Origin: Kiritimatiellia bacterium
Lineage (GTDB): Bacteria; Verrucomicrobiota; Kiritimatiellia; CAIQIC01; Lenti-01
NCBI GenBank assembly: GCA_050176815.1
Contig: JBFXHR010000004.1
Location: 19,927 to 83,926 of the forward strand
Length of the DNA stretch: 64,000 nt
Direction: 5' to 3'
The position numbers were made by a program, and so were the translations under genes. Below, one piece after another: positions 3,590 to 50,728 of this stretch; within the stretch, counting starts at the first letter, position 1; each line of letters starts with the position of its first letter. The notes below the pieces were generated by a model that saw nothing but the letters and a program-made list of their open reading frames with translations, was not told the origin of the DNA and did not search any database.

Positions 3590-4882
3590 ATGCGCATTTT
3601 GTATTTCCACCAGTTTTTCGCCGGTCCGCAGGCCCCGGGTCCCGCGCAGCCGCGCGACCTGGTTCGGCTGCTGGCCGAGCGGGGGCATATCGTGGACGTG
3701 GTGGCGTGCGACCTGAACGCCTACAACGAGCAGACCGAACCCGAGGAGTCTGTTTCGACGGCGGCGGGAGGAAGCGTCCGAGTGCATCGTTTGCCGGTGC
3801 CGCGCAATTTGCGCGCAAGCCTGGCCCATCGCCTCAAGACCTATGGCCAGTTTGCCTGGTCGGCCTACCGGTTTGGCCGCGGGCGGGACGCGCCCGACGT
3901 CGTGATGGCCACTATCCAGCCATTGTTCGGCGGGATGGCGGCGTTCCGGCTGGCTCGGCGCTGGCGAAAACCGTTTCTGCTGGAAATCCGCGATCTGTGG
4001 CCGGATGCGCTCGTGGTCAAGAAAGCCATTTCCAAGTGGCAGGCCGTGCCGCTGCACGCGATGGCGCGATCGTTGTACTTCGGCGCGGATCGCGTGGCGA
4101 GCCTCACGCCCGGCATCAAGATCGAACTGCTGAAAAAGGGGATTCCGGCGGATCGGCTGGACGTGTTGCCGAACGGCTTCAACGAGGCGTTTTTCCGGTT
4201 GGAGCCCGGAATCCGCGAGAAGATGCGGGACCGACTCGGTTGGGGCAAACAGTTCGCGGCGGTCTACGCCGGATCGCTGACCGAAGTGACCTCCGTCGAG
4301 ACCATCGTCCGGGCGGGCGCATTTCTGCGGTCTCGTCCGGACATCCGCATCGACCTGTTCGGCTACGGGCAAAGCAAATCCAAGGCGATGGCGCTGGCGG
4401 AGGAACTCGGGCTGGACAACGTCCATTTCCACGATCCGGTGCCCCGAACGCAGGTTCCCGCGATCTTGGCGGCGGCCGATGCGGCGCTGATGTCGCTGTT
4501 CCGCAGCCCGCTGATCCACATCTATTTTGAAAACAAGTTCATCGACTACATGGGCTCGCGCCTGCCGATCCTCGCGTCCTTGGAGGGCGTGCAGGCGGAC
4601 TTGATCCGGCGCACCGGCGCGGGGCAGGTCGTGCCCACGTTCGATTCCGAGGCCCTGGCGAGGGCCATTGCCGACGCGGCGGACCATCCGGAGCGCTGCC
4701 GGGAAATGGGCGGGGCCGGGCATCGGTTCCTCGCGACCCACCTGCGGCAGCAGGACATCCTCAACCGCTACGCCGATGTGCTGGAGGCCGTGGCGAGGGG
4801 CGAAGGCGCCCGCGTGCCGGCCTGGGATCCGTTCCTGGAGACGGAAGTCAGAGGCCAGAAGTCAGAGGGCGGGGAAGCGTGA
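3590..4882 (+). CDS. glycosyltransferase family 4
   Basis: 430 aa. GT-B N-terminal sugar-acceptor domain and C-terminal GT4 domain (EX7E-like region GLPILASLEG). Confidence 0.75.
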   Translation: MRILYFHQFFAGPQAPGPAQPRDLVRLLAERGHIVDVVACDLNAYNEQTEPEESVSTAAGGSVRVHRLPVPRNLRASLAHRLKTYGQFAWSAYRFGRGRDAPDVVMATIQPLFGGMAAFRLARRWRKPFLLEIRDLWPDALVVKKAISKWQAVPLHAMARSLYFGADRVASLTPGIKIELLKKGIPADRLDVLPNGFNEAFFRLEPGIREKMRDRLGWGKQFAAVYAGSLTEVTSVETIVRAGAFLRSRPDIRIDLFGYGQSKSKAMALAEELGLDNVHFHDPVPRTQVPAILAAADAALMSLFRSPLIHIYFENKFIDYMGSRLPILASLEGVQADLIRRTGAGQVVPTFDSEALARAIADAADHPERCREMGGAGHRFLATHLRQQDILNRYADVLEAVARGEGARVPAWDPFLETEVRGQKSEGGEA

Positions 4883-6669
4883 ACTCAATGCTCCTCATGA
4901 TCGGCGGGGCGTTGGTGGCGTCGGTGGCGCTGGCCCGGGCATTCTTTCTAGCGCGGTTTCGCGGGGGGTGGCTGTTCTATCTGGCCAACGTAATGTGGGA
5001 GATCTTTCCCAAGAAGTTGGGTATCCGGCGCGGGGCGATGGAAGCGTTGGCGGCGGCGGCGGGTTTGGGGTGCCTAAAGCTGGGCGGCGGCACTTGGGCC
5101 GGGGTGGGCGGCGTGGCTGTGGTCCTGGGCGTCTTGCAGTTCGCCCTGTGGGGAATGGAGCGCCTGCTGTTTGCCGAGTTGCGGATTCCGCGGTTGTTTT
5201 TCAATCTGGAAGGGCCTTTTGTTGCGCGCATGCCGCGGTATCGGCTCGGTACGCTGTGGACGGGAATGCCGTTCGAGCTCGAACTGGCGGCAGTCAATTC
5301 ATCGCCTCAGCCGTGGCCGGCGCCGCTGCGCATCCGATTGGATGCGCCGCCGGACTGGCTGGAAAACGACTCGGCGGAACGGGCCATCGCGCCGCTGCCT
5401 GCGGGCGGCGTGGGGAGGATTCGCTGGATCCTCCGCCCAAAGGGAGTCGCTGCCCGCGGTACGCTGAACGTGCGCATCGAAGGCTGCAAGGATTGCCGGA
5501 ACATCGAAATTCATTTTGACGGATGCCGGCGCGCGGCGGATTTCCGGATTGAGAAGGCCGCGATTTCCCGCTATCCGGGCGGCCGGCGCAGCGCGTTCGT
5601 CTGGCGCGGGGACATGGATCTGTACGACGTGCGGACGTTCCAGTCGATCGCCGGGCTGGAAACGACGCTGGGCTTGTCGGCGCGGCTTGCGTTTCCGCAG
5701 ACGATGTGCCTCTCCACGCGGCTGTCGTTCGACGAAACGGCGGCGCGCGAGTTTGCGGCGCACGAAGGCGCGGAAACGGGATGGGAGGACATCCCGCGCT
5801 TCATCCAATGGCTGCGCGAAAAGGTGGACGTGCGGCATTCCTGCGCGTTCCCGGCCAAGTCGGCCACCAAGCCGTATCTGATGGAACTGGGCAACCACGG
5901 ACATCTGCACTACGACACGGCGGCGGCCGCGGCGCCCGAGAACGGCTGGAAATCCCATGCCAAAACGGGCGCGGGGCGCTATCCGTGGGTGGGGGACGAC
6001 GGCTCGTCGTACGGCGAACAGCGCGACAACATTCTGGAGGCCGCGCGCTGGTTCCAGCGGTTGCTGGGGTTCACGCCGCGGTCGTGGGCCAAGCCGGGGC
6101 GCTGCAACGACGCCGATACCGCGCGGGCTGCCGAGGCGGCCGGCTGCGAGGTGCTCAGCGGGTCCGACATCCGCGCCCGCGACAACGTGCTGTTCCAGCC
6201 GCCGCCGCACCATCCGGGCGGGACGGACGCCGTGGAACTGACCTCGCGCTATCCGCCCGATCCGCAGCACGCCTTCCATTTCTTCATGCTCGTTTTCTGG
6301 TTGAACCGCTCGCGCCGGCTGGGCCGGCCGATGGTGTTCATGTGCCACCAGCACATGCGCCAGTGGGAAGGACCGGCCTGCGCGCTTTTCTCTGAAGCGC
6401 TGATCCGGTCCGTGCTGCGCGGATTCCACGGCGAATTCCACGTCGATACGCTGTTCGGCGTCGGAAAATACTGGCGCGAAGTGCTGAGTCCCCGGACGCG
6501 CCGCGTGGCGGTTGCGCTGGACGGCACGCGCCTCCGGGTCGAGAATCGCAGCGATATGGATTTCGAGCGTGTGCCGGTGGACCTGGAACTGGCCGACGGC
6601 GGGCGCTCCACCGTGCTGGTTTCGGTGCGCAGCGGCCAGACCGTCGAAGTGGATTTGATGGAGAGATAG
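4879..6669 (+). CDS. membrane-anchored polysaccharide deacetylase-like (CE4-like) protein, paralog B
   Basis: GTGA overlap with the upstream gene. N-terminal TM segment; WRGDMDLYD, GNHGHLHYDT and RDNI motifs collinear with 690..2546. Confidence 0.5.
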   Translation: MNSMLLMIGGALVASVALARAFFLARFRGGWLFYLANVMWEIFPKKLGIRRGAMEALAAAAGLGCLKLGGGTWAGVGGVAVVLGVLQFALWGMERLLFAELRIPRLFFNLEGPFVARMPRYRLGTLWTGMPFELELAAVNSSPQPWPAPLRIRLDAPPDWLENDSAERAIAPLPAGGVGRIRWILRPKGVAARGTLNVRIEGCKDCRNIEIHFDGCRRAADFRIEKAAISRYPGGRRSAFVWRGDMDLYDVRTFQSIAGLETTLGLSARLAFPQTMCLSTRLSFDETAAREFAAHEGAETGWEDIPRFIQWLREKVDVRHSCAFPAKSATKPYLMELGNHGHLHYDTAAAAAPENGWKSHAKTGAGRYPWVGDDGSSYGEQRDNILEAARWFQRLLGFTPRSWAKPGRCNDADTARAAEAAGCEVLSGSDIRARDNVLFQPPPHHPGGTDAVELTSRYPPDPQHAFHFFMLVFWLNRSRRLGRPMVFMCHQHMRQWEGPACALFSEALIRSVLRGFHGEFHVDTLFGVGKYWREVLSPRTRRVAVALDGTRLRVENRSDMDFERVPVDLELADGGRSTVLVSVRSGQTVEVDLMER

Positions 6670-7515
6670 ATGCCGTTGGTTTGCACAGTGGACGTCGAGG
6701 ACTGGGCGCAGTCCACCCTCGATACGGAAATGCCGATTTCGGATCGCGCGGGGCCCAACATGGAGCATTTGCTCGACGTGCTGGCGGAAGAAAAGACCAA
6801 AGCCACCTGTTTCGTTCTGGGGAAATTCGCCGAGAAGTTCCCGGCCTGCGTGAAGCGGATCGCCGCGGAAGGGCACGAAGTGGCCTCGCACGGCTACGGG
6901 CACGTGGACGTCTTCCGGCTTTCGCCGACGCAGTTCCGGGAGGACGTCCGCCGGTCCAAGGGGCAGTTGGAGGCGTTGACGGGCGCGGCGGTGATGGGCT
7001 ATCGCGCGCCGGATTTCTCGATCGTGAAGGAATCGCTGTGGGCGTTGGACGTGCTGGCGGAGGAGGGGTTCGCCTACGACGCGAGCATCAATCCGGCGGT
7101 GCTGGCGCGCTTCGGCGTGCCCGATTTTCCGGCGCAGCCGGTGCGCCTGGCGCTGGCGGGCGGCTTGAGCCTGGTGGAATTGCCGGTGGCGACGCTGCCG
7201 GTATTGGGGCGGAAATTCCCCGTGGCGGGCGGGGGCTACCATCGGTTGCTGCCGTTCCCGGCCATCCGCTGGGTGGTCGAACGGGTGGTGCTGGCGGGCG
7301 AGGTCTTCATGGCCTACTGCCATCCGTACGAGTTCGATCCGGACGAGTTCGCCCATCTGGGCTATCCGTTGCCGCTGAAGACCCGCCTGCACCAGGGGCT
7401 GGGGCGGCGGGGATTCGAGGGCAAGTTCCGGCGGATGCTGCGGGAATTCGAGACCACCTTGGCCGGGCAAGTCGCCGAGACAGCAACGAATGAGGCCCCG
7501 GTCTACGAAGCGTGA
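6670..7515 (+). CDS. polysaccharide deacetylase (CE4), PEP-CTERM/EPS-locus subfamily
   Basis: NodB-homology motifs VDVEDW, HGYGH and RAPDF; 281 aa, as in EPS-locus deacetylases. Confidence 0.8.
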   Translation: MPLVCTVDVEDWAQSTLDTEMPISDRAGPNMEHLLDVLAEEKTKATCFVLGKFAEKFPACVKRIAAEGHEVASHGYGHVDVFRLSPTQFREDVRRSKGQLEALTGAAVMGYRAPDFSIVKESLWALDVLAEEGFAYDASINPAVLARFGVPDFPAQPVRLALAGGLSLVELPVATLPVLGRKFPVAGGGYHRLLPFPAIRWVVERVVLAGEVFMAYCHPYEFDPDEFAHLGYPLPLKTRLHQGLGRRGFEGKFRRMLREFETTLAGQVAETATNEAPVYEA

Positions 7516-7529
7516 ACCCAGAACAGCCG

Positions 7530-7600
7530 GCTACGGATTTCGCAGATGGCGCGGATTCGATCCCGAAACCCTTGGATTATCGATCCGCGCAATCCGTAGC
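7530..7600. repeat. palindromic hairpin repeat, copy 1 (GCTACGGATT...GCGCGGAT / ATCCGCGC...AATCCGTAGC)
   Basis: Internal inverted repeat with two stem modules; a second copy lies at 8020..8100 in the same orientation. Confidence 0.8.
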
Positions 7601-7623
7601 TTGATTCAGAAAGGCATGCGGAT

Positions 7624-8007
7624 ATGGAACTGTTGTACAAAGAGATCACGGAACAGATCATCGGCGCGGCCTATGAGGTCTATCGTGTTTTGGGGTATGG
7701 ATTTCTTGAAAAAATCTACCAGCGGGCGATGGTGGTGGAATTGGAATTGCGCGGACTCATGGCTCAGCCCGAAGCCTCGGCCAAAGTGTTTTTCAAAGAC
7801 GTGTGCGTAGGCGACTATTCAGCGGACCTCTTTGTCGGGGAGAAGGTCGTTGTAGAGCTGAAAGTCGCGCGAGAACTGAATCCGGCGGATGAAGCGCAGT
7901 TGATCAACGAACTGCTGTCGACGAGACAGGAAGTGGGTATGCTCATCAACTTCGGACGCGCAGGTGTCCAATTCAAACGCGCAGTCAATCAACAGAACAA
8001 CGGATGA
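7624..8007 (+). CDS. GxxExxY protein (PD-(D/E)XK-fold, PDDEXK_3-like)
   Basis: 127 aa containing GAAYEVY (GxxExxY) and the conserved D/ELK motif. Local GC is lower than in flanking genes. Confidence 0.8.
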   Translation: MELLYKEITEQIIGAAYEVYRVLGYGFLEKIYQRAMVVELELRGLMAQPEASAKVFFKDVCVGDYSADLFVGEKVVVELKVARELNPADEAQLINELLSTRQEVGMLINFGRAGVQFKRAVNQQNNG

Positions 8008-8019
8008 TGATCGGGACAA

Positions 8020-8100
8020 GCTACGGATTTCGCGAATGGCGCGGATCGGAAATCTATTCAGGCCTTTAGATTGATCCGCGAAATCCGCGCAATCCGTAGC
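8020..8100. repeat. palindromic hairpin repeat, copy 2
   Basis: Shares the GCTACGGATTTCGC..ATGGCGCGGAT and ATCCGCGCAATCCGTAGC modules with copy 1. Confidence 0.8.
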
Positions 8101-8124
8101 TCAATGTATCCGAATGCCTAGTCT

Positions 8125-8811
8125 ATGACAAAGGGTCAAGCCATCCTCAAGCGGGTTTTCGACTTTTCCGCAGCTCTGGTCGGTCTTGTCGTGCTGTCGC
8201 CGGCGATGCTGGCCATCGCCGTTCTCGTGCGGGCGACGTCGTCCGGACCGGCACTGTTCATCCAGGAGCGGGTGGGGCGGCACGGCCGGAAGTTCCGCTG
8301 CGCGAAATTCCGAACGATGAGCATGGGCGCGCAGGCGCAGGGCACCGTCACGACGGCGACGGACGCGCGGGTGACGCCGCTCGGGCGCTGGCTGCGCCGG
8401 TGGAAGCTGGACGAGCTGCCGCAGTTGGGAAACGTGCTGGCGGGGCGGATGTCGTTCGTGGGGCCGCGTCCCGACGTGCCCGGCTATGCGGACCGGCTGC
8501 AGGGCGACGACCGTCGGATTCTCGAATTGCGGCCAGGCATCACGGGCCCGGCCACGCTGCTGTTCCGCGACGAAGAGCGGTTGCTGGCGCTGGCGCGCAA
8601 TCCGCAGGCCTTCAACGACGCGGTGGTCTTTCCCGAAAAGGTGCGCCTCAACCGCGAATATCTGGAGAACGGCGGCTTTTGGCGCGACCTGGGCTATGTT
8701 CTCGCGACGGTTTGGCCGGGTCTGACGCGGCGGCTGGGTTGGAATCGGCGGCTTGGTTTGGATTTCGAATCTTTTTCCGCCCGCATGGAGCGGGAAGCCC
8801 GTTGTTTTTGA
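8125..8811 (+). CDS. polyprenyl-phosphate sugar-1-phosphate transferase (bacterial sugar transferase, EpsL/WbaP C-terminal-domain type)
   Basis: 228 aa with a single N-terminal TM segment. Has the conserved KFRTM, DELPQL and SFVGPRP motifs of the Bac_transf family. Confidence 0.85.
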   Translation: MTKGQAILKRVFDFSAALVGLVVLSPAMLAIAVLVRATSSGPALFIQERVGRHGRKFRCAKFRTMSMGAQAQGTVTTATDARVTPLGRWLRRWKLDELPQLGNVLAGRMSFVGPRPDVPGYADRLQGDDRRILELRPGITGPATLLFRDEERLLALARNPQAFNDAVVFPEKVRLNREYLENGGFWRDLGYVLATVWPGLTRRLGWNRRLGLDFESFSARMEREARCF

Positions 8812-46289: not shown

Positions 46290-46817
46290 TCAGACATCGA
46301 ACAAGGACCAGCACTTTTTGTTGCGGCGTTTCTGGTCGTCGAGGACGAGGGCACGGATGGCGGCGGGCAGGCGGGCGCGCTGCCAGCGGCATTCGCGGCG
46401 GCCGGCGGCGTCGCGCTTGGCTTCGGGCGTTGCCGCGCGGACGGCGCGGATTGCATAGGCCGCCGCGCCCAGCTCGTGGTCGGCCATGTGCGCCACGGCG
46501 ACGGCGTGGCCGGCGGCGCGGGCGGCTTCCTTCGCGGCGCCGGGGGCCGCGCGGGCCGCGGCGTGCGCGGCATAGGCGGCCTCGCGGGCCTGCGTCATCG
46601 TGATTTTTTCCCGCGCCCAGGCGCGGGCCGCTTCGATCGCGCGCCGCGGCCGGGCGTCGCCGGGACGCGCCTGCTCGAACAGCGGCAGCACGCGCTCCGC
46701 GCACGCCGCCGCCCACGTCGCCAGCCGGCGGTGATCGGCGTCCACCAGCGTGCCGCCGCGCCGGAGGGTGATGAACCGCGGATCGCGCTTCGAAGCGAAG
46801 AGGATTTGGTTTTTCAT
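46290..46817 (-). CDS. hypothetical Ala-rich helical protein
   Basis: 175 aa; 4-nt overlap with the upstream GNAT gene. Confidence 0.4.
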   Translation of the reverse strand: MKNQILFASKRDPRFITLRRGGTLVDADHRRLATWAAACAERVLPLFEQARPGDARPRRAIEAARAWAREKITMTQAREAAYAAHAAARAAPGAAKEAARAAGHAVAVAHMADHELGAAAYAIRAVRAATPEAKRDAAGRRECRWQRARLPAAIRALVLDDQKRRNKKCWSLFDV

Positions 46818-47347
46818 CGTGCTCGGAGAACTTCAGGGTTTTGAGGCCGGGCGTCGGACTGGAGCAGGGCCATGCAGAGGGAATCTTCGGGGACGCCGTC
46901 GAGGCAGCGGGCTTGGCGTTTGCGGCCTTCTTCGACGAAGCCGAATTTGCGGTAGAGCGCGATGGCGCGGGCGTTGGCGGCGAAGACTTCCAGTTCGATC
47001 CGGGTCAGGCCTTTTTGGAAGGCGTCGGCGACGGTGGCTGCCAACAGGCGCGCGCCGATTTTTTGGCCGCGGTATTCGGGCAGGAGGCCGAGCCCGAGCC
47101 GGCCGACGTGCGTCAGGCCGGGGCGTTCGTCGCGGACGACGTCGCACCAGCCGACGACTTGGCCGTCGCGGACGGCATAGAACTGGCTCCAGCCCTTGGC
47201 GAGGACTTGGGCGATGAAGTTCCGGACGGATTCGAGCGGCGGGGCTTCCCGGAAGATCAGGTAGCGGTGCTCGCGGGCGACGACGTCCAGCGCCTGCCGG
47301 AAGCTATCGGCCAGGTCGCGGGTCGCGGGCTGGATGAGGATGTCCAT
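46814..47347 (-). CDS. GNAT-family N-acetyltransferase
   Basis: RGQKIGARLL acetyl-CoA-binding motif; 177 aa. Confidence 0.8.
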   Translation of the reverse strand: MDILIQPATRDLADSFRQALDVVAREHRYLIFREAPPLESVRNFIAQVLAKGWSQFYAVRDGQVVGWCDVVRDERPGLTHVGRLGLGLLPEYRGQKIGARLLAATVADAFQKGLTRIELEVFAANARAIALYRKFGFVEEGRKRQARCLDGVPEDSLCMALLQSDARPQNPEVLRAR

Positions 47348-47839
47348 GGGGCGGGGGGGCTTAGCATGTGAAAATCATAATCCGGCTAAAACTAAAAAAA
47401 GGGACCACAATATCCAATAACCAATATCCAAGGGGACTGCGAAACACGCGAAAAACGAGAAAAACGGCTTAAAACAGGCCAAAAACATCGAAATATGGCC
47501 TAAACACGGTCCCAAAAACGCAAAACGGACAAAATACATCGATTTTCGGCTGGAAAACACGAAAAAATTAGAAAAACAGGGTGGATTTAAGACTTTTCCT
47601 GCGCATTTCCTGTTTTCCTGCATATTTTCGGGTTTTGGACTGTGTTGGGCCGAAAAATGCCGAGTGGACGCTCGTCGATCCCCGGGGAGGGGGAGAGGAG
47701 GACGGAACATCCAACATCCAATGGCCAAAGTCCATTTTCCGGGGGAAGAGGCGGGGGGGCGGCATGAAAAAATTGGAATGAAGTGGACGGCGGAGCGTGG
47801 TAGGGTCGCGCATTCATTTTTTTGCAAAGGCGGCAGGCG
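47348..47839. promoter_or_regulatory. AT-rich intergenic island with phased A-tracts, heptamer repeats and a long imperfect inverted repeat
   Basis: Local GC is far below the window average. AAAAC tracts recur every 10-12 bp across 47440-47580, and their complement (TTTTCC) across 47590-47660. (AAyATCC)n repeats at 47408-47431 and 47706-47730. Confidence 0.5.
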
Positions 47840-50728
47840 ATGGCGGACAATTTCATCTTGGTGGAGGGGGCGCGGGAGCACAACCTCAAGAACATCACCG
47901 TGCGGATTCCGCGCGGCAGCCTGTGCGTGGTGACGGGGCTCAGCGGCAGCGGGAAGTCGTCGCTGGCGTTCGACACGCTCTACGCCGAGGGCCAGCGGAA
48001 GTACGTCGAGAGCCTGTCGTCCTTCGCGCGGATGTTCCTCGAACAGCTGCAGAAGCCGGACGTGGACCGCATCGAGGGGCTGTCGCCCGCGATCGCGATC
48101 GAGCAGCGGTCGGCGGGGTCGAATCCGCGGTCGATCGTGGCGACGACGACGGAGATCCACGACTACCTGCGCCTGCTCTATGCCAGCGTGGGGCACCAGC
48201 ACTGCCATAAATGCGGCAAGCCCATCGCGCGGCAGAGCGCGGAGGAGATCGTCAACCGGATCCTGAAGAAGCCCGAAGGCGCGAAGGTGCAGCTCTTGGC
48301 GCCGCTGGTGGAGGGGCGCAAGGGCGAGCACGCGGAGATCTTCGATTCGGCGCGGCGGCTGGGGTTCACGCGCGTGCAGATCGACGGGGAGATGTTCGAT
48401 CTGGAAAAGCCGCCGAAGCTGGACAAGCAGAAGAAGCATTCCATCGCGGTGGTGGTGGACCGGTTGGTCATCAACGACAAGGTACGGGGGCGGCTGACGG
48501 ATTCGGTGGAGCTGGCGCTGAAGCAGGGCGAGGGGGTGCTGAACGCGCTGTTCCAGGAGCCGGGCGCGGGCGAGGCGTGGACGCCGCAGATGTTTTCCGA
48601 GAAGAACGCGTGCGCGGATTGCGGGATCAGCTTCGATGCGCTCCTGGCGCGGAATTTTTCGTTCAACAGCCCGTACGGGGCGTGCCCGACGTGCGACGGC
48701 TTGGGGCAGATGCTGGTGTTCGACGAGGATCTGGTGGTGCCGGACCCGACGAAGTCCATCGATTCGGGCGCGATCGCGGCCTGGCGCCCGGCGGGGCGGC
48801 GGGAGGCGATTTACCGCAAGGGGCTGCTGCGGGCGCTGGCGAAGCACCTCGGGTTCGATCTCGGCACGCCGTGGGAAGAACTGCCGGAAAAGGTCCGCCA
48901 GGTCATCCTGCACGGCTCGGGCGAGGAGGACGTCGAGCTGGGCTTCTGGATGCGCGGGGCGTGGCGGAAGTACAGCAAGCCGTTCGAGGGCGTGATTCCG
49001 AACCTGCAGCGGCGCTATACGGAGTCGGACAGCGACTACATCAAGCAGAAACTGGCGGGCTTCATGAGCCGCCTGCCGTGCACGGGCTGCGGCGGGAAGC
49101 GCCTGCGCCCGGAGAGCCTCGCCTGCCGCGTGGCGGGCAAGGGCATCATGGACGTGATGGAATTCTCGGCGCGCGACGCGGCGGCGTTTTTCGCGGACCT
49201 GCCGCTGTCCGAGCAGGAAAACAAGATTGCGGCGGAGGTGCTGAAGGAAATCCGCAAGCGGCTGCGGTTCCTGTGCGACGTGGGGCTGGGCTACCTGAAT
49301 TTGAACCGCGAGAGCGGGACGCTCTCCGGCGGCGAGGCGCAGCGCATCCGGCTGGCGACGCAGGTGGGCGCGGGGCTGGTGGGCGTGCTGTACGTGCTGG
49401 ACGAGCCAAGCATCGGTTTGCACCAGCGCGACAACGAAAAGCTGCTGCGGACGCTGAAGGGCCTGCGCGACCTGGGCAACACGGTGGTCGTGGTCGAGCA
49501 CGACGAGCAGACGATCCGCGAGGCGGACTACGTCATCGACCTCGGGCCGGCGGCGGGCGTGCACGGCGGGGAAGTCGTCTTTGCCGGCACGGTGCCGGAC
49601 CTGCTGAAGTCGACAGCATCGCTGACCGCGCAGTTCCTGAACGGCGAAAAGAAGATCGACGTCCCGCACGATCGCCAGGCGCCGGGCGAGGCGTGGCTGG
49701 AGATCTTCGGCGCGGCGGAAAACAACTTGAAGAATATCGACGTGCGCTTTCCGCTGGGGCGGATCTCGTGCGTGACGGGCGTGTCGGGCAGCGGCAAGAG
49801 CACGCTGGTGGACGACATCCTGCGGCGGGCGCTGTTCCGGAAATTCTACGGGTCGAAAGACAAACCTGGCAAGCACAAGAAGATCGCCGGGATGCAGCAT
49901 CTCGACAAGGTGATCGTGATCGACCAGTCGCCCATCGGGCGGACGCCGCGGTCGAATCCGGCGACGTACACGGGCGCGTTCAACGCGATCCGCGACCTGT
50001 TCACGCAGCTGCCGGGCTCGAAAATGCGCGGCTACAAGCCGGGGCGGTTCAGCTTCAACGTCAAGGGCGGCCGCTGCGAGAAGTGCAAGGGCGACGGCAT
50101 CCTGAAGATCGAGATGAACTTCCTGCCGGACGTCTACGTGACCTGCGAGCAGTGCCGCGGGCGGCGCTACAACCAGGAAACGCTGGAAGTGAAGTGGCGC
50201 GGCAAGAGCATCGCCGACGTGCTGGACATGACGATCGCCGAGGCGCTGGAGTTTTTCGCGCCGGTGCCGACGATCGCGCGCAAGTTCCAGACGATGAGCG
50301 AGGTCGGGCTGGGTTACCTGAAGGTGGGCCAGCCGGCGACGACGCTCTCCGGCGGCGAGGCGCAGCGCATGAAGCTGAGCGCGGAACTGGCGCGGCGCGA
50401 CACGGGCCAGACCTTGTATCTGCTCGACGAGCCGACGACGGGGCTGCATTTCGCGGACGTGGACCGGCTGCTGAAGGTGCTGCTGCGGCTGCGGGACGCG
50501 GGCAACAGCCTGATCGTGATCGAACACAATCTCGACGTGGTCAAGACGGCCGACTACATTGTGGATCTGGGACCGGAAGGCGGCGACGAAGGCGGCCGCG
50601 TGGTGGCCTGCGGCTCGCCGGAGGAAATCGCGGCGAACCCGGCCTCGCACACGGGCGAGTATTTGCGGCCGATGCTGGCGCCGCCGGCCCCGAAACCGGC
50701 CAAGGCGAAGCGGACAAAGAAAAAATGA
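47840..50728 (+). CDS. uvrA: excinuclease ABC subunit A
   Basis: [19 protein letters not shown]; two ABC ATPase modules with Walker [10 protein letters not shown] and GVSGSGKST; zinc-finger Cys motifs. Confidence 0.95.

Follow-up and report, generated by a model that had tools for sequence, protein, structure and literature searches.

The GxxExxY gene and its flanking hairpins

The window analyzed here is a 64,000-nucleotide (nt) stretch of DNA from a Kiritimatiellia bacterium (GenBank assembly GCA_050176815.1, contig JBFXHR010000004.1, positions 19,927 to 83,926 of the forward strand), and its exopolysaccharide (EPS) operon contains a small cassette in which a GxxExxY gene is bracketed by two hairpin repeats. 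The gene (7624 to 8007, forward strand) encodes a protein of 127 amino acids (aa) and lies between a polysaccharide deacetylase gene (6670 to 7515) with Polysacc_deac_1 and DUF3473 domains and a gene for a Bac_transf priming sugar transferase (8125 to 8811). A Pfam profile search matched the open reading frame (ORF) to PF13366 (PDDEXK_3; E value of 6e-35, 120.5 bits against a cutoff of 22), and NCBIfam matched it to TIGR04256 (GxxExxY; E value of 4e-35, 120.8 bits against a cutoff of 35). The window gene is thus a member of the GxxExxY protein family (PF13366/TIGR04256), and these matches, together with the domains of the two neighbors, bear out the original prediction, made from the DNA letters, of a 127-aa GxxExxY gene between a deacetylase and a priming transferase. 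The top NCBIfam model for the deacetylase was TIGR03006 (XrtA system deacetylase), with a score under its cutoff.

The GxxExxY motif of the protein is G26-F-L-E29-K-I-Y32, and the PD-(D/E)XK catalytic residues, D68 and E78-x-K80, are unchanged across an alignment of 20 relatives. An AlphaFold2 model (pLDDT of 93.5) has the PD-(D/E)XK (restriction-endonuclease-like) fold, and the nearest PDB folds to it were those of Cas4 SSO0001, lambda exonuclease, and LHK-Exo, all distant (E values of 1e-4 to 3e-3). A sequence search of the PDB gave no match at an E value of ≤1, and nothing significant was found in PADLOC and PHROGs, which leaves a known defense system unsupported. Neither the GxxExxY protein nor the hairpin pattern turned up in viral contigs, and a phage origin was therefore dropped. 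No second GxxExxY ORF was found in the window.

The repeats flank the gene at 7530 to 7600 (71 nt) and 8020 to 8100 (81 nt), exactly at the coordinates first proposed. The 27-nt left arms of the two hairpins are 93% identical, and their right terminal 19 nt are 100% identical. Both copies hold an outer (GCTACGGATT/AATCCGTAGC) and an inner (GCGCGGAT/ATCCGCGC) stem, as named in the original prediction, and their predicted folds (−36.7 kcal/mol for the left and −44.8 kcal/mol for the right copy; z scores of −4.2 and −6.9) were not equaled by any of 200 shuffles. The arms are not simple palindromes but runs of 9-nt units containing CGGAT. The outer arms at 7530 to 7556 and 8074 to 8100 are 85% complementary to each other, and the window cassette is predicted to fold as two local hairpins. 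The G+C content, which the original prediction gave as lower in the gene than in its neighbors, is 0.49 to 0.54 over 7500 to 8200 and 0.65 to 0.73 in the adjoining genes. No further copy of the repeat was found within the 64 kb, with or without a gene, whereas dispersed gene-less hairpins are numerous in other genomes (see below).

The segment that differs from the empty allele of a related locus extends from 7480 to 8148 (forward strand; 669 nt, compared with 81 nt in locus L144). The parts described here are on the forward strand, except for the hairpin arms and loops, to which no strand is assigned. The segment opens with a substituted C-terminal tail of the deacetylase (7480 to 7515; ..TATNEAPVYEA*), which is common to all occupied alleles, whereas empty alleles end in ..RPDWPAHEPAF*. 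A conserved outer spacer, ACCCAGAACAGCCG (7516 to 7529), follows and is seen again 5′ of the left arms in orthologous loci and also between tandem hairpins. The left hairpin comprises a left arm, GCTACGGAT T TCGCAGAT GG CGCGGAT (7530 to 7556), of three units with CGGAT or CAGAT; a loop in which folding predicts a small inner stem (7557 to 7582); and a right arm, ATCCGCGC AATCCGTAGC (7583 to 7600), of two units. The leader of the GxxExxY gene, TTGATTCAGAAAGGCATGCGGAT (7601 to 7623), comes next, and no sigma-70-like promoter was found there on the forward strand. The right hairpin comprises a left arm, GCTACGGAT T TCGCGAAT GG CGCGGAT (8020 to 8046), assigned from sequence and folding; a loop with a predicted inner stem (8047 to 8073); and a right arm of three units, ATCCGCGAA ATCCGCGC AATCCGTAGC (8074 to 8100). 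A trailing spacer and a substituted transferase start (8101 to 8148; ATG at 8125, MTKGQAIL..) complete the segment and are also present in L059, the closest occupied allele. A new transferase start, like the new deacetylase tail, is common to the occupied alleles.

Insertion into a formerly tight gene junction

The same two host genes occur without the cassette in several relatives. The deacetylase is 89% identical to that of the window in L144/L145, where 9 nt separate its stop codon from the transferase ATG; 77% identical in L147/L148, with 3 nt between the two genes; and 71% identical in L149, where the genes abut. In alignments with the empty loci L144 and L147, homology to the window stops after GTCGCCGAG (7471 to 7479) and returns at AAGCGGGTTTT (8149 onward). 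The lost junction of 81 nt includes the last 11 deacetylase codons and the first transferase codons. GxxExxY genes with 83 to 91% identity occupy the same place in the orthologous EPS loci L019, L059/60, and L063 to L068, and the cassette has been inherited vertically in at least eight related lineages.

Comparison of the window gene with seven related copies (six orthologous ones at the EPS site and the L061 gene of a second locus) gave ratios of nonsynonymous to synonymous substitution rates (dN/dS) of 0.02 to 0.06, with dS values of 0.8 to over 3, and the arm cores are kept across the orthologues despite saturated synonymous sites. The saturated dS, the low dN/dS, and the invariant D68 and E78-x-K80 together show that the insertion is old and that the protein has been kept functional. 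The sequence comparisons thus show that an ancestor of a Kiritimatiellia subclade acquired the cassette at a deacetylase/transferase junction that had been tight, with the replacement of about 81 nt, and that strong purifying selection has acted throughout its later inheritance.

The original prediction, that a compact cassette arrived in the operon and left it undisrupted, is supported by the empty alleles, in which the host genes lie 0 to 9 nt apart, and an ancestral architecture is contradicted by the relatives with 71 to 89% identical deacetylases that carry no cassette. The target-site duplication that the comparison with empty loci had been expected to define could not be found. The window junction is instead a replacement of 81 nt, at which inverted repeats are present without direct duplication.

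Arm architecture across the GxxExxY family

A scan of metagenomes with a family alignment yielded 80 loci with G+C contents from 35% to 68%, 72 of which had enough flanking sequence for analysis. The key structure of the family is an inverted pair of arms, each composed of about three tandem 9- to 11-nt units containing CGGAT. In the commonest layout, a left arm alone, (TTTA)GCCACGGAT-GAAACACGGAT-GAAACACGGAT, lies upstream and is followed by the ribosome-binding region and the gene, and the complementary right arm alone, ATCCGTGTTTC-ATCCGTGTTTC-ATCCGTGGC(TAAA), lies downstream. With GCYACRGAT required in the 250 nt upstream and ATCYGTRGC in the 300 nt downstream, 53 of the 72 loci had both the terminal left motif and the terminal right motif, 11 had the left motif only, 3 had the right motif only, and 5 had neither. 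The background of these terminal motifs was 24 in 269 kb (about 1 per 11 kb). In 33 simple elements, 26 to 35 of about 29 to 36 aligned arm positions were complementary between the arms, and the flanks of such elements often extend the palindrome (TA, TTTA..TAAA). CACAGAT units are found in the arms of some elements (L083, L087, L096, and L111). A left-arm/right-arm pair 400 nt apart in L013 was rejected as chance motifs within rpoC.

The window repeat is not unique to its site. In a second, unrelated locus (L061/L062), a GxxExxY gene 84% identical to that of the window lies between GH42/DUF4832 and Laminin_G_3 genes and has the same type of hairpin, one upstream and two downstream. The flanks in the orthologous EPS loci vary between half a hairpin (L063 and L064) and three or four hairpins arrayed in tandem (L065 to L068). 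Two complete flanking repeats, as originally described, are therefore present in the window but are not general, with from half a hairpin to four per flank. From these sequences, a complete hairpin on each side is a variant typical of the Kiritimatiellia clade, and the inverted arm pair is the family invariant.

Distant members of the family, which show 30 to 43% identity and come from annotated plasmids and secondary replicons, build the same design from different units, namely, CACAGAGGA in Bacteroides finegoldii, CACAGAGA in Bernardetia, and CTTCAGTCCTT in Gemmatirosa, and the Prevotella member has complete hairpins on either side. Such comparisons mark the arms as a trait of the whole family, with a unit sequence that follows the protein clade. 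The family is large, PF13366 matching 24,682 cluster representatives (clusters at 50% identity) at an E value of ≤1e-3. A BLAST search of plasmids with the consensus arm returned nothing relevant.

Several variations on the arms and the gene were also noted. Some left arms in L064 to L068 (e.g., L064, about 2925 to 2975) nest a small GC-rich hairpin, GCCACGCGGGCYGGCGTGG. The left arm and leader are multiplied in tandem upstream of the gene in L139 and in L072, with three copies in each. L019 (7547 to 7830) and L088 contain 5′ GxxExxY fragments, each with its own left arm in front. Many cluster representatives of about 260 aa (P0241, P0242, P0244, and others) hold two GxxExxY domains, and the C-terminal extensions "IREIR" and "NPRNP" in called proteins (P0036, P0038, and P0043) correspond to read-through into the right arm.

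Gene-less hairpins in other genomes

A scan for GCTACGGATT-N35-65-AATCCGTAGC in a collection with one genome per species (596 Gb) detected 57 matching hairpin loci, against about 17 that we estimated to be scattered by chance. The matches cluster in a few metagenome-assembled genomes (MAGs), including those of Promineifilum, Caldilinea, Ardenticatenia, two Saprospiraceae, Fimbriimonadaceae, Kiritimatiellia, and Akkermansia, and one Promineifilum MAG has at least 16 loci. The inner arms of most matches are made of further CGGAT units, though the search pattern did not demand any. Most of the 57 hairpins adjoin housekeeping genes, the neighbors spanning more than 100 Pfam families, and no GxxExxY gene was detected near them in about 350 kb of surrounding sequence. 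The expectation that the hairpins always flank GxxExxY genes was thus not upheld, and their position between ordinary genes away from any such gene marks the gene-less hairpins as a dispersed intergenic repeat of several phyla, the Chloroflexota among them.

Related but divergent repeats were seen in some of these MAGs. Giant hairpins occur in a Saprospiraceae MAG (L003, 2117 to 2680; L017, 2343 to 3067; L052, 3838 to 4411) and consist of TACGGATT repeated in tandem over hundreds of nucleotides and then the inverse array. The repeats of the Caldilinea MAG (L021, L022, L025, and L048), which are arrays of a 25-nt palindrome, GGCTACGGATTTGCAATCCGTAGCC, and those of the Fimbriimonadaceae MAG (L004, L008, L012, L013, L027, and L038), which are 65-nt hairpins with unrelated interiors, have only the outer 10-mer GCTACGGATT in common.

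PF05635 genes and 23S rRNA intervening sequences

The intervening sequence (IVS) in the 23S rRNA of Coxiella is 428 nt long, has a G+C content below that of the genome, and contains an S23p (four-helix-bundle) ORF in the sense orientation (PMC4990558). The inverted repeats at its ends make up a 28-bp stem that RNase III cuts, and three tandem GACAGAT heptamers, whose copy number varies among strains, lie upstream of the ATG (PMC4990558). The origin and mode of movement of rRNA IVSs have been open questions since about 1990 (PMC4990558).

Genes of the four-helix-bundle family (PF05635) were retrieved by searching the collected loci with two four-helix-bundle probe sequences and were confirmed with Pfam. 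In L095, a frameshifted PF05635 gene (5433 to 5866) between pyrH and frr has four copies of GTGGCTA upstream and four of TAGCCAC downstream. In L161, a further homologue (1440 to 1895) between DUF4159 and MoxR genes has GTGGCTA/TAGCCAC arms of three to four units. In L019, from a related Kiritimatiellia MAG, a PF05635 gene (1957 to 2279) inside the EPS region has four copies of ACATTCA downstream and a partial inverse array upstream. Further PF05635/bAvd genes that overlap both neighbors lie in BrxC/PglY (BREX-like) operons in L158, L160, and L163 (about 1410 to 1900), each with three to six tandem GGGGCGAG units upstream; a single complementary downstream unit is present in L160 only. Among the GxxExxY elements, the complete simple element L085 is predicted to enclose its ORF in one stem of about 50 bp (z score of −9.3), which is the topology of an IVS.

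By their sequences, the GxxExxY and PF05635 families, two unrelated families of small ORFs, have one cassette design. The comparison indicates that GxxExxY genes carry a fixed, recognizable arm architecture that is common to PF05635 genes and the Coxiella IVS. Since the PF05635 genes and the published IVS have the same design, the window cassette is taken as IVS-type, and the feature is rather likely to be an IVS-type small-ORF cassette living in a protein-coding operon. A wider proposal can be put forward only tentatively and is less likely than not. In this proposal, one unrecognized but very widespread class of small-ORF cassettes with inverted tandem-unit arrays, inserted in the sense orientation in operons and sometimes in rRNA genes, would have two cargoes, GxxExxY genes and S23p/Avd-like genes of the four-helix-bundle type. 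The REP-like gene-less hairpins (after the repetitive extragenic palindromic sequences, REPs) would be its derivatives, the classical 23S IVSs would be its rRNA-resident minority, and the arms would double as RNase III sites on RNA and as recognition sites for the encoded protein.

Expression context and proposed mechanism

Neither a sigma-70-like promoter nor an intrinsic terminator was found on the forward strand of the cassette flanks. In all six annotated replicons, both neighbors are co-oriented with the GxxExxY gene and separated from it by tiny spacers, as in fabD-[gene]-fabG-acpP-fabF, and in the metagenome loci, 38 of 51 crude ORF calls placed the upstream neighbor in the same orientation as the gene. 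Judged from these contexts, the cassette is sense oriented in its host operon, and neither a promoter nor a terminator belonging to it can be detected; it therefore appears to rely on read-through of the operon.

According to the proposed mechanism, the cassette would be transcribed by read-through from the host operon, and its arms would form duplexes of about 30 bp on the RNA. These would be two local hairpins in the window, where in the Kiritimatiellia lineage each arm has become a complete local hairpin (a left arm joined to a right arm with no gene between them), and one long stem enclosing the ORF in most relatives. By analogy with 23S rRNA IVSs, RNase III may cut the arm duplexes, a step that would release the nuclease mRNA without damage to either host cistron. 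At the DNA level, the element would end in its arms, whose sequence-specific sites co-vary with the clade of the protein. The covariation of arms and protein and the strand-symmetric mismatches between arms suggest sequence-specific recognition at the nucleic acid level, probably by the nuclease or a host factor, and such recognition could underlie both the spread to new sites in the course of evolution and the gene-less hairpin derivatives.

Several observations weigh against an IVS-type mobile cassette that acts through its RNA. The proposed RNase III cutting is drawn by analogy alone. The mismatches between arms have no strand bias (37 of G·T type and 38 of A·C type), and selection for pairing of the sense RNA is thus unsupported, although this test does not discriminate. 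The spacing of the units, which varies from 7 to 11 nt, does not sit easily with phased binding to duplex DNA. Recognition of the arms by the nuclease is weakened by the non-nuclease cargo with the same design, and since this arm design occurs in two ORF families, the encoded nuclease need not be the mobilizing enzyme. No target-site duplication was found either in the family arm comparison or at the junctions between the window and the empty alleles. No near-identical GxxExxY genes were found in differing contexts; all such pairs in the sample share their flanks, which leaves recent movement without support. In a neighbor-joining tree of the deacetylase, the empty L144 falls within the occupied clade, which indicates that loss or recombinational replacement of alleles must occur too.

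Alternative explanations

The alternative that survives best operates at the DNA level only. A domesticated GxxExxY nuclease would cut and copy its cognate hairpins, as in systems of REPs and REP-associated tyrosine transposases (RAYTs), and the hairpins would have no role on RNA. Inverted repeat copies flank the gene as REPs flank RAYT genes, gene-less intergenic copies are many (at least 16 loci in the Promineifilum MAG), and tandem hairpin arrays adjoin the gene in L065 to L068. The vertical inheritance of the gene under strong purifying selection, the conserved catalytic residues, and the strand symmetry of the arm mismatches also fit. However, the same arm design is found with PF05635 genes, whose four-helix-bundle products are not nucleases, the roughly 350 kb around the 57 hairpins of the genome collection contained no GxxExxY gene, and GxxExxY genes are multicopy whereas RAYTs are typically single copy. 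There is also no Y1 transposase, and GTAG lies at the end opposite to its position in REPs. This explanation is considered unlikely, if still a serious competitor of the IVS-type cassette.

A module that serves the host is much less probable. The hairpins would be mRNA stabilizers, attenuators, or processing sites that tune the transferase, and GxxExxY would be a host gene in or near polysaccharide synthesis, in keeping with the retention of the cassette at the EPS site in at least eight lineages under strong purifying selection and with L072, in which a GxxExxY gene lies directly 5′ of a different Bac_transf gene. The same cassette design is nevertheless found in unrelated operons (fabD/fabG, radA, ade, and GH42/Laminin_G), close relatives have the same operon without the cassette, the segment is GC poor, and an intrinsic terminator was not detected. 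CsrA-binding sites (ACA-GGA-UG-like units) were considered as well and rejected, as the opposite arm is their complement and the units of other clades are without GGA.

Coincidence, in which a generic intergenic repeat filled two new spacers around an independently inserted gene, is strongly disfavored. Gene-less hairpins do adjoin many unrelated genes, but the left-upstream/right-downstream polarity in 53 of the 72 loci stands against a background of about one motif per 11 kb, the arm unit sequence co-varies with the protein clade, and simple elements carry just half a hairpin per side. An integron-type gene cassette, with the hairpins as attC sites for an integrase, recalls the promoterless small ORF followed by an imperfect 70- to 80-nt palindrome, but it is scarcely credible and was rejected, because the arms (GCTACGGATT...AATCCGTAGC) are without RYYYAAC/GTTRRRY core sites, the cassettes are single in housekeeping or EPS operons rather than in arrays beside an integrase, no intI gene with attI next to such arrays was seen, most elements are half-arms and not one 3′ palindrome, and the EPS-operon context is conserved in relatives.

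Significance of the arm architecture

A survey of PD-(D/E)XK proteins gives the function of PF13366 as "Unknown," and in the searchable library no paper was found on GxxExxY, PDDEXK_3, or PF13366 that describes the flanks of these genes. The general architecture revealed here matters more than the single window cassette. It accounts for gene-less hairpin repeats of several phyla, for frequent misannotated N- and C-terminal extensions such as the two pentapeptides noted above, and for "interloper" genes found within operons, fabD-fabG being one example. The defined arms and empty sites, along with a protein that is small and soluble, offer a concrete substrate for the problems of PF13366 function and of IVS origin and mobility. 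Were the less certain proposal of one cassette class with two cargoes to hold, 23S rRNA IVSs would be only the rRNA-resident minority of that class.

Other features of the window

In the EPS operon, a 596-aa ORF without a Pfam match (4879 to 6669) is present in every orthologous locus with 63 to 72% identity, and a paralogue of it (37% identity) lies in L019 (433 to 1920). Elsewhere in the window, a 460-nt AT-rich divergent intergenic region (47370 to 47830; G+C content of 0.42) contains A-tract-rich runs and short CAATATCCAA/ACATCCAACATCCAA repeats and separates a GNAT-like ORF (46814 to 47347, reverse strand) from a uvrA-like ORF (47822 to 50728, forward strand). A search of the whole window with Rfam gave no matches at the gathering thresholds, and hence no rRNA was found; at an E value of ≤10, the segment from 7450 to 8180 gave chance miRNA-like hairpin matches only.

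Comparison with known systems

Free-standing or intron-borne homing endonuclease genes, among them that of the PD-(D/E)XK enzyme I-Ssp6803I, resemble the cassette in that a small nuclease ORF forms an insertion with empty alleles and the gene stands at the center of a palindromic site. The cassette differs from them in that no intron or intein is involved, there is no evidence of empty-site cleavage, and long-term purifying selection takes the place of the usual decay cycle. Miniature inverted-repeat transposable elements and small insertion sequences also have terminal inverted repeats of about 30 nt, gene-less hairpin derivatives, an intergenic location, and presence/absence polymorphism. 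Unlike them, the cassette has no DDE or other known transposase and no detected target-site duplication, and it is sense oriented within operons with spacers of a few nucleotides.

REPs, REPINs, and RAYTs, reportedly described by Nunvar in 2010 and by Bertels and Rainey in 2011, are alike in having a gene between inverted cognate palindromes, gene-less intergenic copies, repeat arrays, and vertical inheritance. The enzyme fold is HUH Y1 in RAYTs and PD-(D/E)XK in the flanked gene here. The arms here are tandem-unit arrays with no 5′ GTAG in the canonical position, the GxxExxY genes are often multicopy, and the same arm design also houses non-nuclease ORFs.

The likeness to the 23S rRNA IVSs of Coxiella and Leptospira (PF05635) extends over more features. 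Both have a sense-oriented ORF of about 120 aa inside terminal inverted repeats of about 30 nt. Both have short tandem units in the arms, GACAGAT in three copies in Coxiella and CACGGAT/CACAGAT in three copies here, the number varying by strain or locus. Both also have a G+C content below that of the host and a sporadic distribution, and in both the function of the host transcript is undisturbed. The host site is an rRNA helix for the IVS and an mRNA operon, between two protein-coding genes, for the cassette; the ORF encodes a four-helix bundle (PF05635) in the former and a PD-(D/E)XK nuclease (PF13366) in the latter; and the arms form one enclosing stem in the IVS but two local hairpins in the window. 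Excision by RNase III is proven for the IVS, whereas the duplexes here are only predicted, and the ORF is under strong purifying selection here but decaying in Coxiella. Because it does not reside in rRNA and is without an S23p ORF, the cassette stands outside the IVS family proper and is a new variant of the IVS kind.

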